From an uncultured Verrucomicrobiae bacterium (GTDB lineage: Bacteria > Verrucomicrobiota > Verrucomicrobiia > Limisphaerales > UBA11358): a stretch of DNA of 64,000 bases. The DNA is taken from positions 89,086 through 153,085 of the forward strand of contig CAWJHF010000009.1 of assembly GCA_963842445.1 (NCBI GenBank). The letters are read 5' to 3'. The translations under genes were made by a program, and so were the position numbers. The notes below the pieces were generated by a model. The model was not told where the DNA came from. It worked only from the letters and a program-made list of their open reading frames with translations, and did no database searches. This document shows positions 4,571-46,735 of the stretch, one piece after another (within the stretch, counting starts at the first letter, position 1; each line of letters begins with the position of its first letter).

Positions 4571-4596
4571 GCGTGCAGAAAATTTGCAAAACAATT

Positions 4597-4623
4597 TAAC
4601 GCAGAGGCGCAAAGACGCAGAGA
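4597..4623. repeat. Short intergenic repeat (family D, aacgcagaggcgcaaagacgcagag)
   Basis: Same motif forms an inverted pair at 28599-28682. Confidence 0.7.
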
Positions 4624-4629
4624 TGAATT

Positions 4630-4691
4630 TGTAGGAAACGACGTAAGGAGTCTCCAATTTCAAATCAGAGCCTCGTCACCTCGGCTCCTAC
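4630..4691. repeat. Palindromic element, family A (24-nt imperfect terminal inverted repeats GTAGGAGNCGANGTNANGAGNCTC)
   Basis: Left arm gtaggaaacgacgtaaggagtctc, right arm gagcctcgtcacctcggctcctac. Other copies at 18881, 27662 and 29481. Confidence 0.8.
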
Positions 4692-5377
4692 GAACTTTCC
4701 CTCGGTCTTTTGACCACGACATCAATTCCCGCCTTGTTTTTGGCAATCATGTTCGCGGGCAGGATGCCGCGCCAGAAGACATTCGGGTAAATCACCGAAC
4801 CGCGCCCGACGATGCTGCCGGGGTTCAGCACGGCGTTGCAGCCGATTTCCACGCCGTCACCGAGCAGCGCGCCAAACTTCCGCAAGCCGGTGTCAAACGG
4901 CACGCCGTCCTTCTCCACCTCGATGTTGCCGGGAAACAGTTTGTAGTTGGAAATTTTCACGCCCGCGCCGAGGTGCGCCTTGTGGCCAAGAATCGAATCG
5001 CCGACGTAATTGTAGTGCGGCGCGACGGCGTGGTTGAACAGCAGCGAATTTTTGATTTCGGTCGAGTTGCCCACGACGCAATCGTCGCCGATGATGACAT
5101 TTTCGCGGAGATAGGCGTTGTGGCGGATCTGGCAGTTCCTGCCGATGATGGCCGGGCCTTTGATCATCACGCCATCCTCGACTACCGTGCCCTCGCCGAT
5201 GAAAACTTTTTCGCCGATGTAAGCGCGGCCGTCGCATTTATTTCGCAGTTCCGGTTTCAGGTTCGCGGCGAGGTAGCCTTCAATTTTCTTGAGGGCGTCC
5301 CAAGCGAATTTGCAACCGTCGAAAATCGCGGCGTGTCCGGTCTGGTTGAGGTCAAACAAGTCGGCTGGTTTGAACAT
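4688..5377 (-). CDS. Left-handed beta-helix (hexapeptide-repeat) transferase, GlmU C-terminal-like
   Basis: 229 aa made of consecutive [LIV]-G-x-x-x-x hexapeptide turns (IGRNCQI, IGDDCVV, LGAGVKI, IGCNAVL, VGRGSVI). Confidence 0.7.
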   Translation of the reverse strand: MFKPADLFDLNQTGHAAIFDGCKFAWDALKKIEGYLAANLKPELRNKCDGRAYIGEKVFIGEGTVVEDGVMIKGPAIIGRNCQIRHNAYLRENVIIGDDCVVGNSTEIKNSLLFNHAVAPHYNYVGDSILGHKAHLGAGVKISNYKLFPGNIEVEKDGVPFDTGLRKFGALLGDGVEIGCNAVLNPGSIVGRGSVIYPNVFWRGILPANMIAKNKAGIDVVVKRPRESS

Positions 5378-14012: not shown

Positions 14013-15401
14013 ATGGCAGCGTTGCTTCTCACCGGCGGGCGCGTCGTGGACCCGGCCAACCGTCTCGACGCAAAAACAGACGTTTTAATTTCGGAGGGCA
14101 AAATCACGGCGGTCGGCGCGGACGCGGTGAAAAAGGCGCCGCGCGACGCCGAACGTATGGCCGTGAACGGCCTGGTGGTCTGTCCCGGCTTGATTGATTT
14201 GCACGTCCATTTGCGCGAACCGGGACAAACGTCCAAGGAAACCCTCGCCACCGGCACCGCCGCCGCCGCGCGCGGCGGATTCACCTCGGTCGTCTGCATG
14301 CCGAACACGTCGCCGGCGATTGACAATGCCGGCACCGTCGCGCTCATCCGCGAACGCGCCGCGCAGCAGGGCATTGTCAATGTTTTCGTAAGCGGCGCCA
14401 TCAGCAAAGGCATCGCCGGCGAAGAGCTCGCGCCGATTGGCGGCCTGAAACGCGCTGGCATCGTGGCCATCACCGACGACGGCCATTGCGTGCAGAACAA
14501 CGACCTCATGCGCCGCGCGTGCGAATACGCCAAAATGTTCGACCTGCCGGTGATGGACCATTGCCAGGATTATGCGCTCGTGACCGACGGTGTGATGCAC
14601 GAGGGTTACTGGAGCACCGTGCTCGGCTTGCGCGGCTGGCCCTCGGCGGGCGAGGAAGTCATTGTGGCGCGGAACATCCTGCTCGCCGAACTGACCGGCG
14701 CCAAAGTCCATTGCCAGCACCTGAGCGCGGCGGGCAGCGTCGCGCTGCTGCGCGAGGCCAAGAAACGCGGCGTGCCAATTTCCGGCGAAGCGTGTCCGCA
14801 CCATTTCACGCTGACCGATGCTGCCGTGGCCGGCAGCGAAAAATTCTGGGCGACGGACGGAAAGACTCTCAGCCCTCAACTCTCAAAGCTCAACTTTTCG
14901 CGCGAATGGCCGAAATACGACACGAATTTCAAAATGAACCCGCCGCTGCGCTCGGCGCGCGATCGCGAGGCGATTCTCGAAGGGCTGGCCGACGGCACGA
15001 TTGAAATTCTGTGCAGCGACCACGCGCCGCACTGCGACTATGAAAAGGAAGTGGAATTTGACTACGCGCCGTTCGGCATCACCGGTCTGGAAACCGAACT
15101 GGCGCTTTCGCTGATGCAACTGGTCCATGCCAAACGAATTTCGCTGCCGGATTTGATTGCGAAATTCACCGTCAACCCGGCGCGATTGCTGAATCTGAAC
15201 AAGGGCACATTGAGTGTGGGGGCAGATGCGGATGTGACGGTGTTTGATCCCGATGCCGAATGGGTTTTTGAGCGCACGGCGACGGCGAGCAAATCAGCCA
15301 ACAGCCCGTTCTGCGGCTGGAAACTCAAAGGCCGGGCCGTGGCTACCATCGTCGGCGGCAAAATTGTCTGGTCGGAAAAATCCGAAATGGTTGCGGCTTG
15401 A
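14013..15401 (+). CDS. pyrC: Dihydroorotase
   Basis: ATG at 14013. Motifs PGLIDLHVHLREPG and GGFTSVVCMPNTSP, ending with CSDHAPH. Confidence 0.9.
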   Translation: MAALLLTGGRVVDPANRLDAKTDVLISEGKITAVGADAVKKAPRDAERMAVNGLVVCPGLIDLHVHLREPGQTSKETLATGTAAAARGGFTSVVCMPNTSPAIDNAGTVALIRERAAQQGIVNVFVSGAISKGIAGEELAPIGGLKRAGIVAITDDGHCVQNNDLMRRACEYAKMFDLPVMDHCQDYALVTDGVMHEGYWSTVLGLRGWPSAGEEVIVARNILLAELTGAKVHCQHLSAAGSVALLREAKKRGVPISGEACPHHFTLTDAAVAGSEKFWATDGKTLSPQLSKLNFSREWPKYDTNFKMNPPLRSARDREAILEGLADGTIEILCSDHAPHCDYEKEVEFDYAPFGITGLETELALSLMQLVHAKRISLPDLIAKFTVNPARLLNLNKGTLSVGADADVTVFDPDAEWVFERTATASKSANSPFCGWKLKGRAVATIVGGKIVWSEKSEMVAA

Positions 15402-18846: not shown

Positions 18847-18880
18847 TACAGGATGGGGAATGCGTTCGGAGTTCGGCGTT

Positions 18881-18966
18881 TGTAGGAGACGAGGTAACGA
18901 GTCTCAAATATTTTGGACTCCTCCTGGTTTCCGACTAAGAATGAGCCTCCTCACGTCGGCTCCTAC
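18881..18966. repeat. Palindromic element, family A (long-spacer copy)
   Basis: gtaggagacgaggtaacgagtctc ... gactcctcctggtttccgac ... gagcctcctcacgtcggctcctac. Confidence 0.8.
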
Positions 18967-19037
18967 ATTTTGATTCGCGAAATTCGCGGATAATCCCTGC
19001 TGGCTTCTGAATTCTGTGTTCTGTATTCTCCAACACC

Positions 19038-20262: not shown

Positions 20263-21102
20263 ATGAACATTCTCGACACCATTGTTGAGCAAAAGAAGCG
20301 CGAGGTCGCACAATTGCCACCGCGACTCGTCGCCACCGGGGATTTGCGTGATGCGCTGCTGGAACGCGGCGAGCGGCACGACTTTCTGGCGGCGTTGCGC
20401 AAGCCGCGTCACGGTGATATCGCGCTGATTGCCGAGGTCAAAAAGGCCTCGCCATCAGCGGGCGTGATTTGCATGGACTTCGACCCGGTGCACATCGCGA
20501 AGGAATACGAAGCGGCGGGTGCGAGTTGCCTTTCGGTTTTGACGGACGAAAAATTTTTCCAAGGTTCGCTCGATCACCTCCGGCAGATTCGCGCGGCGGT
20601 TAAGCTGCCGTTGTTGCGAAAGGATTTCATCATTGACGAGCGGCAGATTCTCGAGGCCATCGAATGGGGCGCGGACGCCATCCTGCTTATCATCGCCATT
20701 TTGACCGACGCGCAATTGAAAAAATTCCATTCGCTGGCGACCGAGGCCGGTCTGGCTGTACTGGTCGAAGTTCACGATGAAGCGGAACTGGACCGTGCAA
20801 TGAAAATTGGCGCACCCCTCATCGGTGTGAACAACCGCAATTTGAAAAATTTCAAGGTGGATCTGGCAACGACGGAAAAACTGGCGGCAGAATTATACCG
20901 TAGGACGGGTGTCTCGCCTGTCTCTAAAATTAAAAATGGAGACAGGCAGGATGCCTGTCCTACGCTTGTTGCTGAAAGCGGCATCCACACGCGCGCGGAC
21001 GTGGAGCGTCTGAGAAAATGCGGCGCCAACGTAATTTTGGTCGGCGAATCTTTGATGCGCGGCGGTGATATTCAATCCAAAATCCGCGAATTGATCAGGT
21101 AG
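20263..21102 (+). CDS. trpC: Indole-3-glycerol phosphate synthase, carrying an in-frame family B element
   Basis: IAEVKKASPS, LSVLTDEKFFQGS, LLRKDFIIDE and GVNNRNL motifs. Inserted peptide RRTGVSPVSKIKNGDRQDACPT is encoded by 20900-20963. Confidence 0.92.
   Translation: MNILDTIVEQKKREVAQLPPRLVATGDLRDALLERGERHDFLAALRKPRHGDIALIAEVKKASPSAGVICMDFDPVHIAKEYEAAGASCLSVLTDEKFFQGSLDHLRQIRAAVKLPLLRKDFIIDERQILEAIEWGADAILLIIAILTDAQLKKFHSLATEAGLAVLVEVHDEAELDRAMKIGAPLIGVNNRNLKNFKVDLATTEKLAAELYRRTGVSPVSKIKNGDRQDACPTLVAESGIHTRADVERLRKCGANVILVGESLMRGGDIQSKIRELIR
20900..20963. repeat. Palindromic element, family B (GTAGGACRGGYRTCYYGCCTGTCTC arms) inside trpC
   Basis: gtaggacgggtgtctcgcctgtctc - spacer - gagacaggcaggatgcctgtcctac. 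Homologous copy at 32446-32518. Confidence 0.85.
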
Positions 21103-27162: not shown

Positions 27163-28536
27163 TCAACCGCCCAGCGAACCCGGATCGCCCACGTCGCCCT
27201 TGTTGAAATCCACGTAGGCCTCGGTCAAATCGGCGGCGTAAATTACGGTGCTTGCCTTGCCGAGATTCAGGTTGATGTGCAAATCGAATTCCTTCGGCAC
27301 CACGGCGGCGCAAAGTTCCCTGAATGTCGCCTTTGTCGGCTGGCCGCGCTTTAAACTCCACAAGATCCTTTTGCCGCCGGGAGCGCTGTAACCGATATCC
27401 ACCTTCTCCTCGACGATTTTGGCCGGCGAATAACCGAGCGCGTCAATAATGCGGCCCCAATTCGGGTCGCCGCCGTGCCAGCTCGTTTTCACGAGCGGAC
27501 TGTTCGCCACCGCCCGCGCGGCGGCATCGGCATCGGCAACTGTCTTTGCACCGTTCACACGCACTGTCACAATGCGATGCACGCCTTCGCCATCGCGCAC
27601 AATCATCTTCGCCAGTTCCAGGCAGACGTGATTCAGCGCGGCTTGAAAAACCTTGAAGTTTTGTAGGAGCCGACGTGAGGAGGCTCTGACTTTTTTTGAC
27701 GAAGTGAGACTCGTTACCTCGTCTCCTACAATTATTGGATTGCCCGCCAGCCCATTCGCCAGCACCAGCACCGTGTCGTTCGTGCTCATGTCGCCGTCCA
27801 CAGTGATGCGATTGAAGCTCTGCGCGACGGCTTCCTCCAGAGCAGCCTGCAAAGTTTTCGCATCAATCGCCGCGTCGATGGTGATGAAACAAAGCATCGT
27901 CGCGTGCAACACCGCCGGCCTTGCTCCCGTGGCGCTCATGCCAGGCTGAATCATGCCTGCGCCTTTGCAAATGCCGCCGATGCGGACGGTCTTGCCGTCC
28001 AGCTTGAACTCGACCGCGATTTGCTTGGGCCGCGTGTCGCTCGTCATGATGGCCTCGGCGGCATGAGCGGCGCTCTCCGGCGAATTGTCGAGTAGCGTCA
28101 CGGCCTCTTTGATACCGGCCCGGACATTGGCCATCGGCATCGTAACCCCGATGCGGCCGGTGGAACCGACCAGAACATGTTCCGCCGGTATGTGCAGATG
28201 TTTGGCGAGCAATGCAGTCATTTCACGCGCGTCCTGCAAGCCTTGTTTTCCCGTGCAGGCATTGGCGTTGCCGGAATTGACGACGATGGCCTGGGCGGTT
28301 CCCTTTTTCACGCGTTCAACGCAAACTTTCACCGGCGCGGCGCAGACCTGATTGGTCGTGAACATGCCCGCAACCGTCGCCGGAACCTCAGACACAATCA
28401 GCGCGAGATCGCGCTTTTGCCCCTTGTTCGAGCCTTTGCCGGTGCCGAGGCGTTTGATATCGCAAAACACGCCGCCGGCCAGAAAACCTTTTGGCGCGAC
28501 GATGGAACCTAGGATTTTTTTGAACCTGATTTTCAT
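27163..28536 (-). CDS. argJ: Bifunctional ornithine acetyltransferase / N-acetylglutamate synthase, carrying an in-frame family A element
   Basis: KGFLAGGVFCDIK, self-cleavage site HATMLCFITID, and MSTNDTV. Inserted peptide VGDEVTSLTSSKKVRASSRRLLQ is encoded by 27662-27730. Confidence 0.9.
   Translation of the reverse strand: MKIRFKKILGSIVAPKGFLAGGVFCDIKRLGTGKGSNKGQKRDLALIVSEVPATVAGMFTTNQVCAAPVKVCVERVKKGTAQAIVVNSGNANACTGKQGLQDAREMTALLAKHLHIPAEHVLVGSTGRIGVTMPMANVRAGIKEAVTLLDNSPESAAHAAEAIMTSDTRPKQIAVEFKLDGKTVRIGGICKGAGMIQPGMSATGARPAVLHATMLCFITIDAAIDAKTLQAALEEAVAQSFNRITVDGDMSTNDTVLVLANGLAGNPIIVGDEVTSLTSSKKVRASSRRLLQNFKVFQAALNHVCLELAKMIVRDGEGVHRIVTVRVNGAKTVADADAAARAVANSPLVKTSWHGGDPNWGRIIDALGYSPAKIVEEKVDIGYSAPGGKRILWSLKRGQPTKATFRELCAAVVPKEFDLHINLNLGKASTVIYAADLTEAYVDFNKGDVGDPGSLGG
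27662..27730. repeat. Palindromic element, family A, inside argJ
   Basis: gtaggagccgacgtgaggaggctc - spacer - gagactcgttacctcgtctcctac. Confidence 0.85.
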
Positions 28537-28598
28537 TTTGCGGAATTGAATCTGCCAATTTTGCATGTCAACGCGAATCATTTTTTTACGATTAAAAT

Positions 28599-28682
28599 CT
28601 AACGCAGAGGCGCGGAGACCGCAGAGGGACGCAAAGAAAACTTGTTTATCTAACTCTGCGTTTTCTGCGTCTCTGCGTTAAA
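28599..28682. repeat. Inverted pair of family D repeats (probable terminator hairpin after the methyltransferase gene)
   Basis: taacgcagaggcgcggagaccgcagag ... ctctgcgttttctgcgtctctgcgtta. Confidence 0.7.
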
Positions 28683-29498
28683 TCAAATCTTCACGGCATC
28701 AATTTCCAGCCGCACCATGCGGACATGGACGTGCCCGGTGTCGTCCGGTGGATGTTTGGCCAGGTATCGGCCTGTGACCGCAGCGATGAATTCCTCACGC
28801 AAATCCTCCGGCACACGCTGGACGTAAGGCAGCCAGGTCGTGCGCAACCATGACGCAAAGCCTTTGCGCTCGTCGTAAGTTGCATCCTTCGGCGACAGCC
28901 GCACACCCAATGATTTGAACCCAAACCTCGGCAGCCATTTTTCATAGCTCTCCGGGCTGTAAAAAAAATAAGGCTTCTCCAACTTCCGGAAAAACTCGCG
29001 CCAGCGTTTGAGCCGCATTTCCGGCCGCAACGCCACAAACACGTCCTGCGCGTTACCCCTGCCGCCGCACGAAACCACCAGGCGTCCGCCCGAACGCAGG
29101 CACGCCGCCACGCCGCGCAAAAACGCCTGATGATCGTCCATCCAATGCAGAGCCGCGTTTGAAAAAATGACGTCAAATTTTCGCCCAAACCGGATTTTGT
29201 GCGCGTCCATGACTTGAAATTTCAAGTTGGGAACTTTGCCGGATGGAAAAGCAGTGCGAGCGAATTTGATCATTTGCGGCGAGGCGTCAATACCCACCAC
29301 GGAACCGCGCGGCACGGCCTGGGCGATTTCGGCGCTGACCTTGCCATCGCCGCAGCCGACATCAAGGACGTGCTCATTACCCCGCAGGTTGAGTCTGGCG
29401 ATGAGTTCGCGCGCCCAGGCTTGTTGCACGACCGAATTCGCGGCGTAATCGGCGGCGTTCCACCTGGCTACCCTTTTCTTTGTAAGAGACGAGGTCAC
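28683..29498 (-). CDS. Class I SAM-dependent methyltransferase (Tam-like)
   Basis: Motif I VLDVGCGDGKVS, post-I GIDASPQM. The only available start (GTG 29498) lies inside a family A repeat. Confidence 0.85.
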   Translation of the reverse strand: MTSSLTKKRVARWNAADYAANSVVQQAWARELIARLNLRGNEHVLDVGCGDGKVSAEIAQAVPRGSVVGIDASPQMIKFARTAFPSGKVPNLKFQVMDAHKIRFGRKFDVIFSNAALHWMDDHQAFLRGVAACLRSGGRLVVSCGGRGNAQDVFVALRPEMRLKRWREFFRKLEKPYFFYSPESYEKWLPRFGFKSLGVRLSPKDATYDERKGFASWLRTTWLPYVQRVPEDLREEFIAAVTGRYLAKHPPDDTGHVHVRMVRLEIDAVKI

Positions 29499-29545
29499 GA
29501 GACTCTATTTTCTTTTGGTCAGAGACTCCTGACGTCGTCTCCCAC
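29481..29545. repeat. Palindromic element, family A (diverged copy)
   Basis: gtaagagacgaggtcacgagactc - spacer - gagactcctgacgtcgtctcccac. Confidence 0.7.
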
Positions 29546-30607: not shown

Positions 30608-30677
30608 GTTGGAGTAATGGAGTAATGGAGTAATGGAATTTTGCAACACTCCATTTCTCCAACACTCCATTTCCCCA
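30608..30677. repeat. Inverted tandem repeat (ggagtaatgg x3 / ctccatttc x2)
   Basis: ttggagtaatggagtaatggagtaatgg ... caacactccatttctccaacactccatttcccc. Confidence 0.6.
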
Positions 30678-31145: not shown

Positions 31146-31172
31146 TTGAGAGTTGAGAGTTGAGGGTTGAGG
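31146..31172. repeat. Short tandem repeat (ttgagRg x4) between rpsI and rplM
   Basis: ttgagagttgagagttgagggttgaggg. Confidence 0.5.
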
Positions 31173-31796: not shown

Positions 31797-34700
31797 TTGA
31801 ACCGTGTGAACACAAAATTGAACAGGGCCGCCGAATTGGAGCGTTTGCTGCGCGAGCGCATCGTGATCCTTGATGGCGCGATGGGCACGACGATTCAGCA
31901 GCGCAAGTTGACGGAAGCCGATTTCCGCGGCGCGCGGTTTGCGGATTGGCGCGGCAAGGAACTCAAAGGCTGCAACGACCTGCTGAACGTCACGCGGCCG
32001 GACATCATCGAGGACATTCATCGCGAATACCTCGAAGCCGGTGCGGACATCATCGAGACGAACACGTTTAATTCACAGGCCGTTTCGCTGGCCGATTATG
32101 GCCTGGAATCGCTCGCCTATGAACTGTCCAAGGCCGGCGCGGAATGCGCCCGGCGCGCGGCGGACACGGCGGAACAAACGCAGCCGGGCCGCGTCTGTTT
32201 TGTGGCCGGAGCCATCGGGCCGACGACAAAGACATCGTCCATTTCGACCGACGTGAACAATCCGGCGGCGCGCGGCTGCACTTACGATGAACTGGTCGCA
32301 GCGTATTCGGAACAGGTCCGCGGGTTGCTCGATGGCGGCGCGGATTTGCTGCTGGTGGAAACGATTTTTGACACTCTGAACGCAAAGGCGGCATTTTTTG
32401 CGATCCAGAACATATTTGATGAGCGCGGGATTGAGCCGCTTCAAAGCAGGACAGGCGTCGCGCCTGTCTCTGACTTTTCGGAAATAAAAAATGGAGACAG
32501 GCGGGATGCCTGTCCTACGAAAGTTGTTCCCATTCTCGCCTCCGTCACGTTCATCCAGGCGGGCAGCAATCGCGGTGTGACCGGCCAGACCGTCGAGGCG
32601 TTTTGGAATTCCATTTCGCACGTTCCGCTGTTGAGCGTCGGCATGAACTGCGCGCTCGGACCGAAGGAACTGCGTCCGCTCATCGAAGAGCTTTCCGGCA
32701 TCGCGCCGATCTACGTCAGCGCATATCCGAATGCCGGCCTGCCGAATCCACTTTTGCCGACGGGTTTTCCCGAAACACCGGAAACCCTCGCGCCGCAACT
32801 GCGCGAGTGGGCGCAAAACGGCTGGCTCAACATCGTCGGCGGTTGCTGCGGCACCACGCCGGCGCACATCAAGGCGATTGCCGAAGCAGTCCGCGGAATT
32901 CCGCCGCGCAAGGTGCCGGTGGTTGAACCGTATTTACGTTTGAGCGGACTCGACGCGCTGACGGTCCGTCCGAATTCCAATTTTCTGAACATCGGCGAGC
33001 GTACGAACGTCGCCGGCTCGCCGAAATTCGCGCAGCTCATCAAGGCCGGCGATTACGAAGCCGCGCTCGCCGTCGCACGCCAGCAGGTCGAGAACGGCGC
33101 GCAGGTCATTGACGTCTGCATGGACGAAGGGATGATTGACGGCGTCGCCGCGATGACGCGTTTCCTGAACCTCGTCGCGTCCGAACCGGACATCTGCAAG
33201 GTGCCAGTGATGGTGGACTCGTCGAAATGGGAGGTCATCGAAGCCGGCCTGAAATGCCTCCAAGGCAAGGGCATCGTGAATTCGATTTCGCTCAAGGAAG
33301 GCGAGGAAAAATTCCTGCGCCAGGCGAAACTGGTCCGCCGGTACGGCGCGGCAGTCGTCGTGATGGCGTTCGACGAACGCGGCCAAGCTGATTCGTTCGA
33401 ACGCAGGATCGCAGTCTGCCAACGCGCCTACGATTTGCTTGTCGGGCAGGTTGGCTTCCCATCGCAGGACATCATTTTCGATCCGAACGTGCTGACTGTC
33501 GGCACCGGCATGGAGGAACACGCGAATTATGCCGTGGATTTCATCCGGGCGACGAAATGGATCAAGGAAAACCTGCCGCACGCGAAAGTCAGCGGCGGCA
33601 TCAGCAACATTTCATTTTCGTTTCGCGGCAACAACACCGTGCGCGAGGCGATGCACTCGGCGTTTCTTTATCACGCCATCCAGGCGGGTCTCGATATGGG
33701 GATTGTTAATGCCGGCCAGCTTGCCGTCTATGACGAAGTGCCGAAGGACCTTTTGGAATTGGTCGAGGATGTTTTGCGCAACCGCCGTCCGGACGCAACC
33801 GAACGGCTGATCAAATTTGCCGAGTCCGTGAAGCAGAAAGGCAAGGCCGAGGCCGTCGAGGACGAATGGCGCAAGGGCACTGTCGAGGAACGGCTCACGC
33901 ACGCGCTCGTCAAAGGCATCGTGGATTTTATTGACCAGGATATCGAGGAAGCACGGCAGAAATTTGCGCGGCCCTTGCAAGTCATCGAAGGCCCGCTCAT
34001 GGCCGGCATGAATGTCGTCGGCGATTTGTTCGGTTCAGGCAAAATGTTCCTGCCACAGGTGGTGAAGTCCGCCCGGGTGATGAAAAAAGCCGTGGCGTAT
34101 CTGTTGCCGTACATGGAAGCGGAGAAAAAGGCCGCCGGTGGCGTGCATAAAAACGCCGGGAAAATCCTCGTGGCCACTGTCAAAGGTGACGTGCATGACA
34201 TTGGCAAAAACATCGTTGGCGTCGTGCTCGCCTGCAATAATTACGAAGTCATTGACCTCGGCGTGATGGTGCCGTGCGAAAAAATCCTCCAGACCGCGCG
34301 GGAACAAAAGGTGGACATCATCGGTTTGAGCGGGCTGATCACGCCGTCGCTCGACGAGATGACGCACGTCGCGCACGAGCTGGAGCGCGAAGGATGCAGG
34401 CTGCCGTTGCTCATCGGCGGCGCGACGACGAGCAAGGCCCATACGGCGGTGAAGATTGCGCCCGGCTACAGCCAGCCGGTCGTTCACGTGCTCGATGCCA
34501 GCCGCGCCGTGCCGGTCGTCAGCAATTTAATCAGCGCGGAAAACAGGCCCGCGTTCGCGCAGGAAATCCGCGTAGAATACGACCGCATCCGCTCACAGCA
34601 CGGTGGCAGAACGGCAAAACTGGTTTCCATCGAAGAAGCCCGCGCCCGTGCGCCAAAGCTGGGCTTCGACAATCTGCCCAAACCGGAGTTCACTGGCATC

Positions 34701-35798: not shown

Positions 35799-36734
35799 TC
35801 AACGCGCCAAGGCGGTTTTTTTGCGCCTTGTCCGGCTTGGTTTCCGTGCGGCAATTTTCCTGACGCGCACGAAAGCGGTTTGCCGCGATGTCTCGCCGTT
35901 TTTTTGCGGCGCGGTCAGCAAATGGTCGCCGTTCTTCTCCGCCGGTTCCGAGGCCGGTTCCGGTGTTGGTTCCCGCGTGATGATTGCCGTGTCGAACCCG
36001 GCAACCACCGGCCACGATCCCCCACCGTTTTCGTGCGGGGCGGGTGGTGGGTGTTCGCCGTTTTTCTCCGCCGGTTCCAGTGCCGGTTTCTGCGCGGCAA
36101 TTTCCTGGTCGAATCCGGCGACCACCGGTGGCGGTTCCTCGCCGTTTTTGGGGGGGGCGGTCAGCGGGTGTTCGCCGTCTTTCTCCGCCGGTCCCTGTGT
36201 CAATGCGGGCTGCTGTTCGACAGTTTCTGTTTGCGGCCCGGTTACGGCCGGCGGCAAGGTTTTCTCGTTTTGACGCGACGCGGCCAGCAGCGCCTGCAAA
36301 TTTTTCTCCAGTTGTTCCTGCACCTGTTTCCGTTCGGCAATTTCTGTTTCATGCCGGTTGATCGTCTGGCGCAATTTCTCGTTGGTTTTGATCAATTCCA
36401 CCCACTGTTCCTTGACTTGCAATTCCCATTTGTCCAGCGCCTGTCGTTTCGCCGCCTCTTCCTGCAGGAAGGTCTTGAGGCCGGGATAAAAACGCACCAC
36501 TCCCACAAGCAGCAGGAAGGAGTAAATGATGTCCACTTTGATTCCCCACTGGGCGTCGGCGTCAAGTGGTTCCACCGCGAGGAACAAACTCATCAGCGCC
36601 ATAAATGAGAGCGCGCCAAAAAGCAACCACCTCATGAGCGTTGATTTGAAAAGCCGACCCAGGCACAGCGCGTAACAAGCCACCCCAAACTGCAGCAGCC
36701 CTGATGTCAGGCGGAAAATGTCGATGTCGTTCAT
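35799..36734 (-). CDS. Membrane protein with coiled-coil and Pro-rich tandem-repeat tail
   Basis: ATG at 36734. Three or four TM helices, heptad-like segment (LDKWELQVKEQWVELIKTNEKLRQTINRHETEIAERKQVQEQLEKNLQ), then 2.5 copies of PAEKxGEHP...NGE..VVAGFD. Confidence 0.6.
   Translation of the reverse strand: MNDIDIFRLTSGLLQFGVACYALCLGRLFKSTLMRWLLFGALSFMALMSLFLAVEPLDADAQWGIKVDIIYSFLLLVGVVRFYPGLKTFLQEEAAKRQALDKWELQVKEQWVELIKTNEKLRQTINRHETEIAERKQVQEQLEKNLQALLAASRQNEKTLPPAVTGPQTETVEQQPALTQGPAEKDGEHPLTAPPKNGEEPPPVVAGFDQEIAAQKPALEPAEKNGEHPPPAPHENGGGSWPVVAGFDTAIITREPTPEPASEPAEKNGDHLLTAPQKNGETSRQTAFVRVRKIAARKPSRTRRKKTALAR
35880..36191. repeat. About 120-bp tandem coding repeat (2.5 copies)
   Basis: Repeated ...ttctccgccggttcc...ggtcgaa(t/c)ccgg(c)gaccaccgg... 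units, mirrored as PAEK(D/N)G(E/D)H peptide repeats. Confidence 0.75.
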
Positions 36735-42760: not shown

Positions 42761-44874
42761 GTTGTCGGCGTTCATCGCTGGCATCCTTATCCTGTGCTGC
42801 CTGCCGGTCGCATCGTCGGCTTCGGTGGCCACGAATCTGGCGAATTCGGATTGCTTGGATTGCCATACCGATCCTTCCAACACCCGGAAAGTGGATGGCA
42901 AAATTGTCCCGCTTGCAGTTTTTCCCACCAACAGCTTCGCCCGGTCTGTCCATTCCATGCTCGATTGCACGGACTGTCACACCGGCGTCAAGGAACTCGT
43001 CCACGGTCGCCAAACTGCCGCCGCCGGATTGCACCGGCTGCCATGAAAAGGAGGGAAAGGATTATGCGGCCAGCATCCACGGCGTGAGCCACGCGCTCGG
43101 CGCGTCCGGGGCCGCCAATTGCTGGGACTGCCACGGTTCGCATGACATCCTGCCGGTCAAGGACCCGACATCGCCGGTCTTCAAACTCAACCTTCCCAAA
43201 ACGTGTGCCAAATGCCACAACAACCCGGCCTTGACGCGGGAGTACGAGATGAAACATCCCGAGGCGGCGGCGCAATACCTCGACAGCATCCACGGCCGCG
43301 CTTTGCTCAAGATGGGACTCATCGTCGCTCCGTCTTGCAACGACTGCCACGGCACGCACGACATCAAACGGTCTGTGGACCGCGACTCGCCCATCAACCA
43401 TGCCAACGTCGCCAGAACCTGCGGCAAATGTCACGTCGGCATCGAGGAAACCTACAACCAAAGCGTTCACGGGCAGTTGCTGGCCAGGGGCGATTCGCGC
43501 GGACCCGTCTGCACGGATTGCCATACCGCGCATGACATCGAAAATCCCGAAGGCAACAACTTCAAGGCCATCAGCGACGCGCGCTGCGGCAAATGCCACG
43601 CTGACCGGCTGGAACATTATCGCGACACGTACCACGGCAAGGCCATGGCCCTGGGCAAACCCAACGCCGCGCCTGCCGTTGCCGCCTGCTACGATTGCCA
43701 CGGCCATCACGACATCCTGCCACCCTCCAATCCTGCGTCGCATCTTTCAAAAACCAACATCCTCGCCACCTGCCAGCAATGTCATCCCGGCGCCACCATC
43801 GGCTTCACCGAATACAAGCCGCACGCCAACCCGATGGACAAAAAGAATTATCCCCTGCTCCACCTGGTTTTCATGGGCATGACCGGCCTGCTCATCGGCA
43901 CGTTCGCTTTCTTCGGCCTGCACACCCTCATGTGGCTCGTCCGCGCTATTTATCTTTACCTGCATGATTCAAAGAAGTTCCGCGAAGCGAAAATCGCGAC
44001 GCAGACGGATGGCGAATGGTTCACCCGTTTCATGCCCTTCGAGCGGCTTCTGCATTTCATGGTGGTGACCAGCTTTCTGCTGCTGGTCGTCACCGGCATG
44101 CCTTTGAAGTTCTACTACACCGGCTGGGCCAAGGCGATTTTCGCGGTCATCGGCGGACCGGAAACCGCGCGGACGCTGCACCGGTTCGGCGCGGTGGTGA
44201 CGTTCATGTATTTCGGCCTGCACTTGGCGTCGCTCATCGGCAAGGCGTGGAAAGGCCGCAAATCCGTGCGCGGCGCGGACGGCAAATTCCATTTCAAGCG
44301 TCTCTGGCAGGTGTTGTTCGGGCCTGACTCCATGATGCCGACCCTCCAGGACTGGCGGGATTTCGTCGCGCACAACAAATGGTTCTTCGGTAAGGGTCCC
44401 AAACCGGAGTTCGACCGCTGGACCTATTGGGAAAAATTCGATTACTTCGCCGTGTTCTGGGGTGTAGCCATTATCGGCGCCTCGGGGCTTATCATGTGGT
44501 TCCCGACGTTTTTCACGCGGTTCCTGCCGGGCTGGATCATCAACATCGCCCTGCTGATCCATTCGGACGAGGCGCTGCTGGCCGCCGGCTTCATCTTTTC
44601 CATCCATTTTTTCAACACCCATTTCCGCATCGAGAAATTTCCAATGGACACCGTCATCTTCTCCGGCCGCGTTTCCAAGAACGAGATGCTGCACGAGCGC
44701 AAACGCTGGTACGACCGGCTCGTGGCGACCGGCCGGCTGGACGACCACCGCGTCAAGGACGAATGGTTGCGCTGGAAAAACATCGCGCGGTCGTTCGGCT
44801 ACTTCTTTTTCGGTCTGGGCATCCTGCTGCTGCTGCTGATCATCTACGCCATGTTCACTCGGCTGGCACACTGA
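42720..44874 (+). CDS. Eleven-heme c-type cytochrome fused to a b-type cytochrome membrane domain (CbcL-like 1), with reading frame interrupted near 43005-43010
   Basis: ORF 42720-43046 has a signal peptide plus CLDCH and CTDCH. ORF 42895-44874 has 9 CXXCH motifs plus a 5-6 TM FdnI/HydC-like domain with conserved His. The two frames join colinearly with the paralog at 45061. Confidence 0.75.
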
Positions 44875-44910
44875 AGTTAGGGGCTGGCATCTTGGCTCTG
44901 GGTTCTGGGG

Positions 44911-44950
44911 TAAATCCGCGTCCATCCGTGTTCATCCGTGGTTAAATTTT
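44911..44950. repeat. Short intergenic repeat (aaatccgcgtccatccgtgttcatccgtggttaaa)
   Basis: Internal catccgtg duplication, related motif at 25062-25090. Confidence 0.55.
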
Positions 44951-45060
44951 TTGTCTCTGCCTCCGTTCGTGTGTTTGGTGGTTGTCCCCTCCGGCAAAAA
45001 AGGGCAAAGGGCCGCCAAACCAGGTGGAGTCCCATGTCCCTTTCCACCTGATATTTATCC

Positions 45061-46735
45061 GTGATGCAGCCCTCGCGATTTCTGTTCATCAGCATCCTGA
45101 TCACGACGCTTGCTCATCCGGCCTTCGCCGGCCTGAAAAACAGCGACTGCATGGATTGTCATTCGGATAACACCCTCGCCATCACCAACGCCGCCGGCCG
45201 GGCCATTTCCCTGTTCGTGGATGAGGCCAGACTCAAGGCTTCCGCCCACAAAACCAACACCTGCGTCAGTTGCCACGCCGACGTCACCGTCAAACATCCC
45301 GACGACAATGTTCCACTCAAGCCCGTCAACTGCGCCACCTGCCACGAACAACAGACCGAAAGTTACAACGCCAGCGTGCATGGACTGGCGGCCAAAGCCG
45401 GACACCGGGACGCGGCCACCTGCCAAGACTGTCACGATTCCCATGAAATCGTCCCGGCGAATCTGCCGGCCTCGCCACTGCATTACTCGCGTTTGGCCCA
45501 GACCTGCGGCGCGTGCCACGACCAGGAAGTCAGGGATTGGGCGATGAGCGTGCATGGCCAAGCGCTGGCAGCGGGCACGCGCGACGCGCCCACCTGCACC
45601 GATTGCCATTCCGAACACAAAATCCAAGCGTTGAAAAACACGTCACCGGAAGTTTCCGCGGAAGTGTGCAGCCGTTGCCACGCCTCGGAACGGCTCAACA
45701 CCAAGTACAATCTGCCGGCTGACCGGGTGAAGACCTTCTTTGAAAGTTATCACGGTCTCGCGGTGCAATACGGTTCGACCGTCGCCGCCAACTGCGGCAG
45801 TTGCCACGGCTACCACAAAATCCTGCCCTCGACCGACCCCCGTTCCACCATCAACAAGGCCCACCTCGTCGAGACTTGCGGCAAATGTCATCCGGGCGCC
45901 GACGAGAAGTTCGCCTCCGGCAAAATCCACGTGGACCTGGCCGCCGGCAACGGCGGGACCGATTTCTCGGCCAAAATCAACCGGTGGGTGCGCCGGGTTT
46001 ATCTGGTCCTCATTTTCGGCACCATCGGCGCCATGTTCATTCACAACGCGCTGTTGTTCCTGCGCAAGGTCGCCGCGCGCTATCGCGTGGCCGTGCGACC
46101 AGTGATGCGGATGAGCCTTGCGCAACGCTGGCAACATTTCGTGCTGGCGGCCAGCTTCATCATCCTCGCTGTCACCGGGTTCGCGTTGAAGTTTCCGGAT
46201 TCGTGGCTCGCGCGGGCGCTCGGTTCCAGCGAACCGTTCCGGCGCTGGACGCATCGCATCGCCGGCATCGTGCTGCTGCTGGTCGGGCTCTGGCATTTGA
46301 TTTACCTGCTCAGCTCGAAGGATGGGCGGCGGCTGGTGTGCGATTTGTTCCCGGTGAAAAAGGACATGGCCGACGTTCTGGGCGCAAATCCGCTATCTGC
46401 TGGGTTGGAGCACCGAGAAGCCGAAGACAGGCCGGTTCGGGTACGCAGAGAAGCTGGAATATTGGGCGGTGATTTGGGGCACCATCATCATGGGCGTGAC
46501 CGGGCTGGCGATCTGGTTCAAGCTGGACGTGACCCGGTTCCTGCCGCGCTGGGCCGTGGATGTGGCATTGACCATTCATTACTACGAAGCTGTGCTCGCC
46601 TGCCTGGCGATAATCGTGTGGCATTTCTACCACGTCATCTTCGACCCGGACGTTTACCCGCTGAACCCAGCCTGCTGGGACGGCCACGTGTCGGAAGAAT
46701 GGCAAAAGCACGAGCATCCGCTCAATAATCACTGA
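45061..46735 (+). CDS. Nine-heme c-type cytochrome fused to a b-type cytochrome membrane domain (CbcL-like 2), with reading frame interrupted at about 46375
   Basis: Signal peptide. CMDCH, CVSCH, CATCH, CQDCH, CGACH, CTDCH, CSRCH, CGSCH, CGKCH. TM domain begins in frame 1, but after 46375 the sensible sequence (FWAQIRYLLGW...EYWAVIWGTIIMGV...) lies in another frame ending at 46735. Confidence 0.75.

Follow-up and report, generated by a model that had tools for sequence, protein, structure and literature searches.

Repetitive extragenic palindromic sequences (REPs) tagged with GTAG occur in the Planctomycetes–Verrucomicrobia–Chlamydiae (PVC) superphylum, and the Verrucomicrobium Opitutus terrae has more intragenic copies than any other species described (Di Nocera, De Gregorio and Rocco 2013, PMC3733652). 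Of the intragenic inserts catalogued across species, over half consist of dimers or groups and encode 20–30 residues, and many of the O. terrae insert peptides begin with VG or VA (PMC3733652). In E. coli, TnpA-REP needs the GTAG tag together with a mismatch in the stem, cuts between C and T (C|T), including in CTAC, and exchanges strands (PMC3333891). Here, we analyze a 64,000-nucleotide stretch of contig CAWJHF010000009.1 (the window) from an uncultured Verrucomicrobiae bacterium of the Limisphaerales, in which a palindromic element lies in frame within argJ. The element is very probably a GTAG-tagged inverted REP doublet (REPIN) of a family paired with REP-associated tyrosine transposases (RayTs), read through by the ribosome as a tolerated loop. 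Taken singly, the argJ case is an ordinary example of the known GTAG REP dimers translated in Verrucomicrobial housekeeping genes. The new point, as read from sequence comparison, is an apparent turnover of the repeat occupant at one argJ codon slot among relatives that are about 90% identical in ArgJ.

The argJ gene (27163..28581, minus strand) encodes 472 amino acid residues and is the sole long open reading frame (ORF) across the element; it is intact and full length. Its product, a bifunctional glutamate N-acetyltransferase/amino-acid acetyltransferase, matches Pfam PF01960 (ArgJ) with E = 5.1e-131 over profile positions 10–372 of 377, and is 100% identical to a database protein, P0001, whose start is placed 5 codons later. 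The 67-base element, at 27663–27729, consists of two inverted 24-nt arms, each a GTAG tag plus a hairpin. Arm 1 (27663..27686, plus strand; GTAGGAGCCGACGTGAGGAGGCTC) is of the C12/G17 subtype, with the tag followed by the hairpin GAGCC-GA-C-GTGA-G-GA-GGCTC, and is read on the argJ coding strand as (R)ASSRRLL(Q). Arm 2 (27706..27729, minus strand; GAGACTCGTTACCTCGTCTCCTAC, the reverse complement of GTAGGAGACGAGGTAACGAGTCTC) is of the G12/C17 subtype. Its minus strand, GTAGGAGACGAGGTAACGAGTCTC, is translated as VGDEVTSL, the GTA of the tag being the codon of Val-285. The 19-nt linker between the arms (27687..27705) is A/T-rich, with the A-rich strand coding and translated as TSSKKV. Altogether, the element contributes VGDEVTSLTSSKKVRASSRRLLQ, residues 285–307 of ArgJ, from 23 codons (nt 27729–27661). 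The preliminary description of this DNA had reported an in-frame palindromic element here, with the correct sequence and with coordinates one base off. It had also placed the insert downstream of the ATML self-cleavage site, as we find: the ATML motif, with the nucleophilic Thr, occupies residues 227–230 (nt 27903–27892), and the element starts 58 residues beyond that Thr.

The coding strand holds one GTAG, in the left arm, and one CTAC, so that a stop codon arises only in the phase xxG TAG. The opposite strand of the linker would yield T-rich codons and TGA triplets. Since the element does not lie in the stop phase and its linker codes on the A-rich strand, which gives Lys-rich sequence, the ribosome reads through it and adds 23 hydrophilic residues, rich in Lys, Arg, and Ser. 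All conserved ArgJ motifs are retained in the window gene, which aligns with the solved enzymes 1VZ6, 1VRA, and 3IT4 on either side of the insert. Repeat-bearing argJ alleles of this kind are present in dozens of independent assemblies, and the argC–methyltransferase–argJ neighborhood is alike in the window and in a related locus, L278. The insert is most likely a tolerated passenger sequence, with ArgJ activity predicted to be retained. A separate length variation lies directly before the catalytic ATML motif, where the 11 residues SATGARPAVLH (residues 216–226; window 27904–27936) have no counterpart in 1VZ6. This segment differs in length by 0–10 residues among relatives (ARPAALPGGRPQGLHATML and similar) and is not repeat-derived.

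In many respects, the argJ element resembles the GTAG-17 to GTAG-20 repeats of O. terrae, which belongs to the same phylum. In both cases, a short stem-loop comes after a GTAG (or GTGG) tag, units occur singly and as dimers, several families coexist in a genome, and in-frame dimers in housekeeping genes encode 20–30 residues starting with V(G/A). The stem-loop differs, however, having here a 5-bp stem, a tandem G.A mismatch, and a GTNA loop, and argJ is absent from the decorated genes listed in PMC3733652. Nor does that paper describe a codon slot holding different families across related species; its nearest statement is a remark on Xanthomonas recB. A non-exhaustive search of the REP literature found no one-slot allelic series beyond that remark.

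Three further doublets of the same family are present in the window. A degenerate arm pattern finds eight arms, arranged as four inverted plus/minus doublets. Shuffled versions of the window contain 0.68 arms on average, and eight arms were reached in none of 100 shuffles; allowing up to 4 mismatches added no arms in the window. The doublet at 4631..4691 is intergenic and has a 13-nt linker. The doublet at 18882..18966, also intergenic, has a 37-nt linker and lies 118 nt upstream of a peptide-chain-release-factor gene. The doublet at 29482..29545 lies in the argC–methyltransferase spacer and has a 16-nt linker. The linkers thus vary in sequence as well as in length (13, 37, 19, and 16 nt, with the argJ copy third). 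Each argJ arm recurs exactly at 18882–18966, where the order of the two on the plus strand is the opposite: arm 1 matches 18943–18967 at 25 of 25 nt and arm 2 matches 18880–18906 at 27 of 27 nt. Six of the eight arms carry GTAG, and the other two carry degenerate tags, GTAA at 29482 and GTGG at 29522. A more generic scan, for GT[AG]G followed by any perfect hairpin, gave 17 matches in the window versus 10.6 in shuffles, too small an excess to be informative, and brought out a third recurrent tagged hairpin (see below). An Rfam scan of the window returned one tRNA and no match at the repeats.

Three of the four doublets are thus outside gene bodies, in agreement with the earlier listing of intergenic copies at 4630, 18881, and 29481, with a caveat for two of them. 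In the 4631–4691 copy, the TAG of the right-hand GTAG tag (4688–4690) is the stop codon of a hexapeptide-transferase gene, 4691..5377(-), and one arm of the 29482–29545 copy overlaps the sole in-frame start codon (GTG, 29498) of the methyltransferase ORF. REP tags can, in this way, supply stop or start codons. The methyltransferase GTG sits in the loop of a REP arm in the window and in L278 (position 5158) alike.

An alternative to repeat insertion is that the segment is ancestral ArgJ coding sequence and that the intergenic copies are chance or derived look-alikes. The segment is indeed in frame, stop-free, and present in many homologs. The alignment with 1VZ6 breaks at the element, however, with residues 281 to 312 of the window protein corresponding to residues 234 to 240, so that the loop has 30 residues in the window ArgJ versus 5 in the solved enzyme. 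This loop belongs to the beta subunit and connects a conserved strand, VLVLANG, with a conserved helix, FQAALNHV. An AlphaFold2 model of the protein, made with 57 close homologs, had a mean pLDDT (predicted local distance difference test) of 38.5 and was unusable. Farther Verrucomicrobial ArgJ orthologs have an unrepeated loop of 5–13 residues; the element replaces some of the loop codons, its 23 repeat-derived codons giving a net gain of about 17–20 residues. At the DNA level, the arms of the window and of L001 are identical at 48 of 48 nt (16 codons), versus 81.5% identity in the rest of argJ, where the same codon is kept at 68% of conserved residues. The 20 codons on either side of the element show only 72–90% nucleotide identity between genomes. 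Since the arms are identical in spite of diverged flanks, constraint or recent copying acts on the repeat DNA rather than on the peptide.

Ancestral coding sequence is also hard to reconcile with exact matches of 27 nt to intergenic DNA, with the lack of any synonymous change in 16 codons against a background of 32% codon change in the gene, and with the presence of the same arms at unrelated loci of many genomes. We give this alternative practically no credence. Judged from these comparisons, the segment is repeat DNA rather than ancestral coding sequence. The preliminary description had reached the same view, and had named an alignment of ArgJ orthologs as one way to check it; in that alignment, neither the repeat-free distant orthologs nor the solved structures contain an equivalent segment, and the argJ arms are identical in nucleotide sequence to intergenic copies.

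The proposed fold of the arm pairs positions 5–9 with 20–24, places tandem G.A/A.G mismatches at 10/19 and 11/18, and pairs 12 with 17 to close a GTNA loop at 13–16. This structure, written as ....(((((..(....)..))))), was tested on 80 distinct arm variants from the window and related genomes. Paired cells account for 90.4% of the total. The covariation score is 0.455 versus 0.123 in shuffles, none of 500 of which attains 0.455, and structures slid along the arm as controls scored at most 0.066. Two-sided changes number 88 cells versus 32 in shuffles (again, none of 500 attain it). For example, pair 8/21 is AU in 27 variants, CG in 26, and UA in 7, and pair 12/17 is CG in 46 and GC in 30. The tag is invariant at G1 and G4, with conservation of at least 90% at T2 and A3. 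The G.A/A.G combination is found at 10/19 and 11/18 in about 93% of 652 arm instances, collected from 1.8 Mb of loci. One subfamily has G-C/A-T in their place, as expected for stem positions. The bases at −1 and −2 of GTAG are pyrimidines in 82–84% of 575 arms.

Doublets in other genomes are built much as in the window. Twenty-two of the 27 examined are hetero-doublets of both 12/17 subtypes, with linkers of mostly 10–44 nt; single arms and same-orientation arrays occur too. Among the matches listed, over 117 stretches from public genomes contain the exact arm motif; almost all of them are titled Verrucomicrobiota or a subgroup, with a dozen or so metagenome-assembled genome (MAG) records otherwise named. 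The family is spread through Verrucomicrobiota of the Limisphaerales/Pedosphaerales type. MAG records such as L009, L011, L058, L085, and L116, titled Bifidobacteriaceae, Klebsiella, Akkermansia muciniphila, or Acidoferrum, contain argJ of Limisphaerales type, REPs, or RayT, and their titles look like taxonomic mislabels.

For the enzyme, the queries were RAYT sequences that Di Nocera et al. 2013 had published in their supplement. A tblastn search with the RAYT of R. baltica led to a truncated gene adjoining three arms of the family in a Limisphaerales MAG, and the N-terminus of that gene retrieved 152 relatives; the loci of 80 of them were examined, and 77 RayT loci were scored for arms in their flanks. 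Regular expressions for the HUH and Tyr motifs had found no match in the first 198 loci. The RayT-like proteins have about 200 residues and share an invariant CLMPDH.H..W.G, the HUH motif, and a Y....N motif. Aligned to the published RAYT alignment with hhalign, the family profile gives a probability of 98.7% and E = 1.9e-16, with both HUH and Tyr motifs spanned; its best match in the PDB is 4ER8, the TnpA-REP of E. coli (E = 4.8e-6). The NCBIfam model NF047646, “REP-associated tyrosine transposase”, matches each of the 38 members tested, though with scores under its equivalog cut-off in every case, and Pfam Y1_Tnp matches are weak and below the curated threshold. A single RayT-like sequence had no match in Pfam or the PDB; matches emerged with profiles. 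Several homologs are annotated as RayT by JGI.

Arms of the family lie within 300 nt of the gene in 70 of the 77 scored RayT loci. Typically, there is a plus arm 13 nt before the ATG and a minus arm 17 nt after the stop codon. The RayT locus is thus a REPtron, a layout that matches a REPIN in which the gene replaces the linker. Moreover, the arm subtype tracks the RayT clade, with GTAGGAG..., GTAGCAGCC..., and the fully paired GTAGCAGCCGACGTGAGTCGGCTC accompanying different clades. Given a GTAG hairpin family whose arms bracket RayT homologs, the argJ element is assigned to a REP–RayT system as one of its REPINs. A non-exhaustive search of the REP literature found no PVC-type RayT clade with covarying arms.

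Farther RayT clades are bracketed by other GTAG hairpins. In L272 and L274, the hairpin is GTAGCCGCGGACGTCAGTCCGCGC, like the second of the families found at the argJ slot (see below), and a Phycisphaera locus with a distant RayT, L275, has arrays of GTAGTGGACGAGGCGACGAGTCC; L246 and L266 likewise belong to distant clades. These hairpins indicate co-divergence of RayT and REP across the PVC group. RayT genes can themselves be hosts to in-frame REP dimers, as in L245 (about 1345–1470), L247, and L261, where the dimers lie between LEPAL and KFQPQ; an example reads ...ALVGDDVRSRP...SVGDEVTSRSGEHSLRRVLQ....

The same data bear on whether the two arms are simply the terminal inverted repeats of a miniature transposable element of the inverted-repeat type (MITE), with the RayT association being coincidental. 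The copies do have inverted termini, are small (61–85 bp), and are dispersed in the window. Around the four window copies, however, no target-site duplication or flanking direct repeat is evident, and such a duplication, along with a DDE transposase, is part of the definition of a MITE. Each arm is by itself a covarying hairpin, a property that terminal inverted repeats do not need, and arms also occur singly and in same-orientation arrays. The bracketing of the RayT homolog in 70 of 77 loci, the tracking of RayT clade by arm subtype, and a GTAG tag as in RayT substrates also speak against it. We regard a MITE as very improbable.

The REPIN assignment is favored by several parallels with the bacterial interspersed mosaic elements (BIMEs) and TnpA-REP of E. 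coli and with REPIN–RAYT systems in general (Bertels and Rainey 2011, PMC3116915; Ton-Hoang et al. 2012, PMC3333891; structure 4ER8). Common to all are the inverted doublet with a variable linker, a pairing of subtypes like that of y and z REPs, GTAG followed by an imperfect stem, an HUH/Tyr gene set in inverted REPs, and the absence of target duplications. The pyrimidines 5′ of GTAG are a further likeness, since the complementary end, C|TAC, is the cut site mapped in E. coli. The tandem G.A mismatch parallels the stem imperfection that E. coli TnpA-REP requires. The differences are as follows. The RayTs here form a PVC-type clade, closest to rba11751 of R. baltica, with a C-terminal extension of about 40 residues (GC.PGYP..P....W..FW), and they score below the curated RayT and Y1 thresholds. 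The arm motif is conserved across many species, rather than within a single species or genus, and the argJ copy is translated.

In-frame palindromes are also known from Rickettsia. Like the argJ element, the Rickettsia palindromic elements (RPEs) lie within genes that are apparently functional and add a surface peptide (PMC3733652). In contrast to the GTAG tag found here, RPE-4 and RPE-6 are CGTC-tagged, and CGTC repeats as a class occur without a tyrosine transposase; a longer palindrome is inserted in the case of RPE-1 (PMC3733652). The hosts of RPEs are obligate intracellular Alphaproteobacteria, and the sequences are unrelated. With no CGTC tag and with an associated RayT, the argJ element is not a member of the RPEs.

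The argJ slot was surveyed in 198 ArgJ sequences of the clade. The window-type doublet is present in 53 sequences. Another 28 have the same family in swapped arm order, mostly of a GTAGC subtype (as read in the DNA of L278 and L010). In 11 sequences, the slot is occupied by a second family, GTAGCCGCGAACGTGAGTTCGCGG, and a third, GTGG-tagged and read in two phases, in 14 (DNA seen in L015, L033, and L280). L281 has a single third-family arm, and others have arrays of four 7-nt units instead, for example (TTCAAAG)4 in L279 and (TTCGGAG)4 in L006. All these slot alleles retain the left junction, in which GTA/GTG follows a Leu or Ile codon, as well as the (R/Q)DFEVFQ of the right flank. Because these coding flanks are conserved, the junctions of the slot can be read to the base.

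Different occupants are found even among close relatives. Outside the loop, the window ArgJ is 91.8% identical to a carrier of the third family versus 91.6% to its nearest relative of the same type. A neighbor-joining tree of the 198 sequences was too poorly resolved near the tips for events to be counted, and pairwise identity classes were used: 95% of pairs share the loop class at 95–100% identity outside the loop, and 33% do so at 90–95%. The argC–methyltransferase spacer behaves similarly, with a doublet in the window, L278, and L282, whereas L281 has a single arm there. The spacer and argJ copies of L278 are alike of the GTAGC subtype of that genome. On this comparative evidence, REP sites appear to persist in the clade while their occupants are replaced or homogenized. 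The proposal in the preliminary description that the argJ copy arose by insertion needs amendment on this point: its repeat origin stands, and a simple one-off event at a naive site does not, as the slot holds other REPs or heptamer arrays in relatives.

Of two candidate routes to this pattern, the first is not supported and the second is rejected. Spread by homologous recombination of a larger tract would make flanking codons more alike within a loop class, and they are no more alike in same-class than in different-class alleles. An in-situ inversion as the origin of the swapped arm order would reverse-complement the linker, whose A-rich strand is the coding one in the window allele and in that of L278 alike.

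A second REP site in argJ lies in the alpha subunit, after about residue 121 of P0001. There, several lineages have 17–33 extra REP-like residues, carried by L001 (3340), L002 (3340), L003 (3364–3440), and proteins P0010, P0022, P0032, P0036, and P0076, including MAGs of Chthoniobacterales type. The window ArgJ has no insert at this site.

We propose the following scheme by analogy with E. coli TnpA-REP. RayT would bind a folded single-stranded REP, for which the GTAG tag and an imperfect stem would be needed, cut at C|T, including inside CTAC, and exchange strands. REP doublets could be copied or replaced in this way without target duplications. Arms that are identical between genomes whose flanking codons have diverged suggest repeated, REP-specific replacement or homogenization at the argJ slot, rather than the slow decay of one old insertion. 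Since CTCC|TAC forms the end of the arms and the G.A mismatch makes their stem imperfect, RayT-catalyzed replacement of the slot occupants would be the most economical explanation.

Several points weigh against assigning the argJ element to a RayT-mobilized REPIN translated as a tolerated loop. No RayT gene was found within the 64-kb window by motif regular expressions or tblastn, and a cognate RayT is unproven for the window's own genome. The RayT-like proteins elsewhere score below the thresholds of Pfam Y1_Tnp and NCBIfam NF047646. In the cited literature, there is no direct observation of RayT-driven REPIN transposition in any organism, so mobilization is itself deduced. The retention of ArgJ activity is a prediction from the conserved motifs, and selection at the argJ site is another possible reason for the extreme conservation of the arms in nucleotide sequence.

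Selection of that kind would follow if the host had taken over the argJ REP, with a DNA or RNA hairpin or the peptide being functional and the slot being kept occupied. Possible roles include an mRNA stability or processing signal in the arg operon, a replication or gyrase site, and a surface loop of ArgJ. In the window subclade, no sampled allele has an unrepeated loop; those read at the DNA level hold either a REP or an array of heptamers, and where a short loop is known from protein alone, it shows the 7-residue period of such arrays. The arms are 98–100% identical between genomes with flanking codons 72–90% identical, and folding of the entire doublet is favorable (−15.2 kcal/mol, z = −4.4). 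REPs elsewhere have been reported to act in mRNA stabilization, termination, and gyrase binding (PMC3733652). Yet the occupants are unrelated, comprising families A, B, and C, single arms, and 7-nt arrays, in both orders and two phases and with unrelated peptides, so that no specific peptide or structure is conserved at the slot. The farther orthologs and the solved ArgJ enzymes work without the segment. The intergenic argC–methyltransferase site persists likewise, and site persistence therefore looks like a general property of REPs. A host function for the argJ REP seems improbable to us, and a tolerated REPIN is preferred.

It is tempting to go one step further and propose that the argJ loop, and perhaps REP sites of the clade generally, act as a landing pad at which RayTs swap REP units by site-specific strand transfer at YY|GTAG and C|TAC junctions. 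We put this forward tentatively, as a possibility that we consider somewhat unlikely. If the landing pad exists, the allelic series, in which three REP families, single arms, either order of the arms, and two phases are represented, would record many independent REPIN replacements, the exact junctions of which are preserved because the coding flanks are under constraint. It would then be a natural record of REPIN movement and target choice.

Whatever the mechanism, the slot alleles provide comparative material on how REPINs are copied, replaced, and targeted. The work also defines a widespread REP–RayT system of Limisphaerales-type Verrucomicrobiota in terms of its arm structure, a cognate PVC-type RayT clade, and co-varying arm subtypes. 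Gene callers and alignments will present spurious “variable regions” in Verrucomicrobial proteins that are in fact translated repeats.

Short tandem arrays with units of 7–8 nt are a separate feature of the window, present in spacers at 954–982, 14865–14895, 19005–19029, 30610–30637, and 31146–31171. The (ACTCTCA)x4.4 array at 14865 and the (TTGAGAG)x3.7 array at 31146 share one unit, on opposite strands, and the second of them occupies the rplM–rpsI spacer. In relatives, such arrays take the place of a REP as the sequence that encodes the argJ loop. The 1.8 Mb of loci contain 82 such arrays, which are not associated with REP arms. Physical linkage of the arrays to REP arms is not supported, as only 4 of the 82 lie within 60 nt of an arm. 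Heterocystous cyanobacteria likewise have dispersed 7-nt arrays, the heptamers known as short tandemly repeated repetitive (STRR) sequences. These resemble the arrays in the argJ slot of some relatives and in the window spacers, not the REP doublet itself, but have other units and belong to another phylum.

Two more repeat families share the window with the REP doublets. One, palindromic with an 8-nt periodicity (TTAACGCAGAGGCGC...), is found at 4596–4623, where it abuts the REP doublet at 4631, and at 28597–28683, where it forms an inverted pair in the argJ–methyltransferase spacer. This is probably the other palindromic family of the preliminary description. The second is another GTAG-tagged hairpin, GTAGGACAGGCATCCTGCCTGTC, with an 8-bp stem and a 3-nt loop, which occurs twice, at 20941–20963(-) and 32496–32518(-), inside a 62-nt repeat (20910–20971 and 32465–32526). 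This hairpin points to yet another family of REPs in the genome.

Elsewhere in the window, repeated sequence occurs within coding regions. CxxCH-type motifs (TGC..GA.TGCCACGG) recur from 43103 to 46702 in the ORFs 42895..44874 and 45061..46728, which probably encode multihaem cytochromes. At 35885–36318, four tandem units of 117–129 nt, 60–78% identical to one another, lie inside overlapping long ORFs and may be part of a repeat protein.

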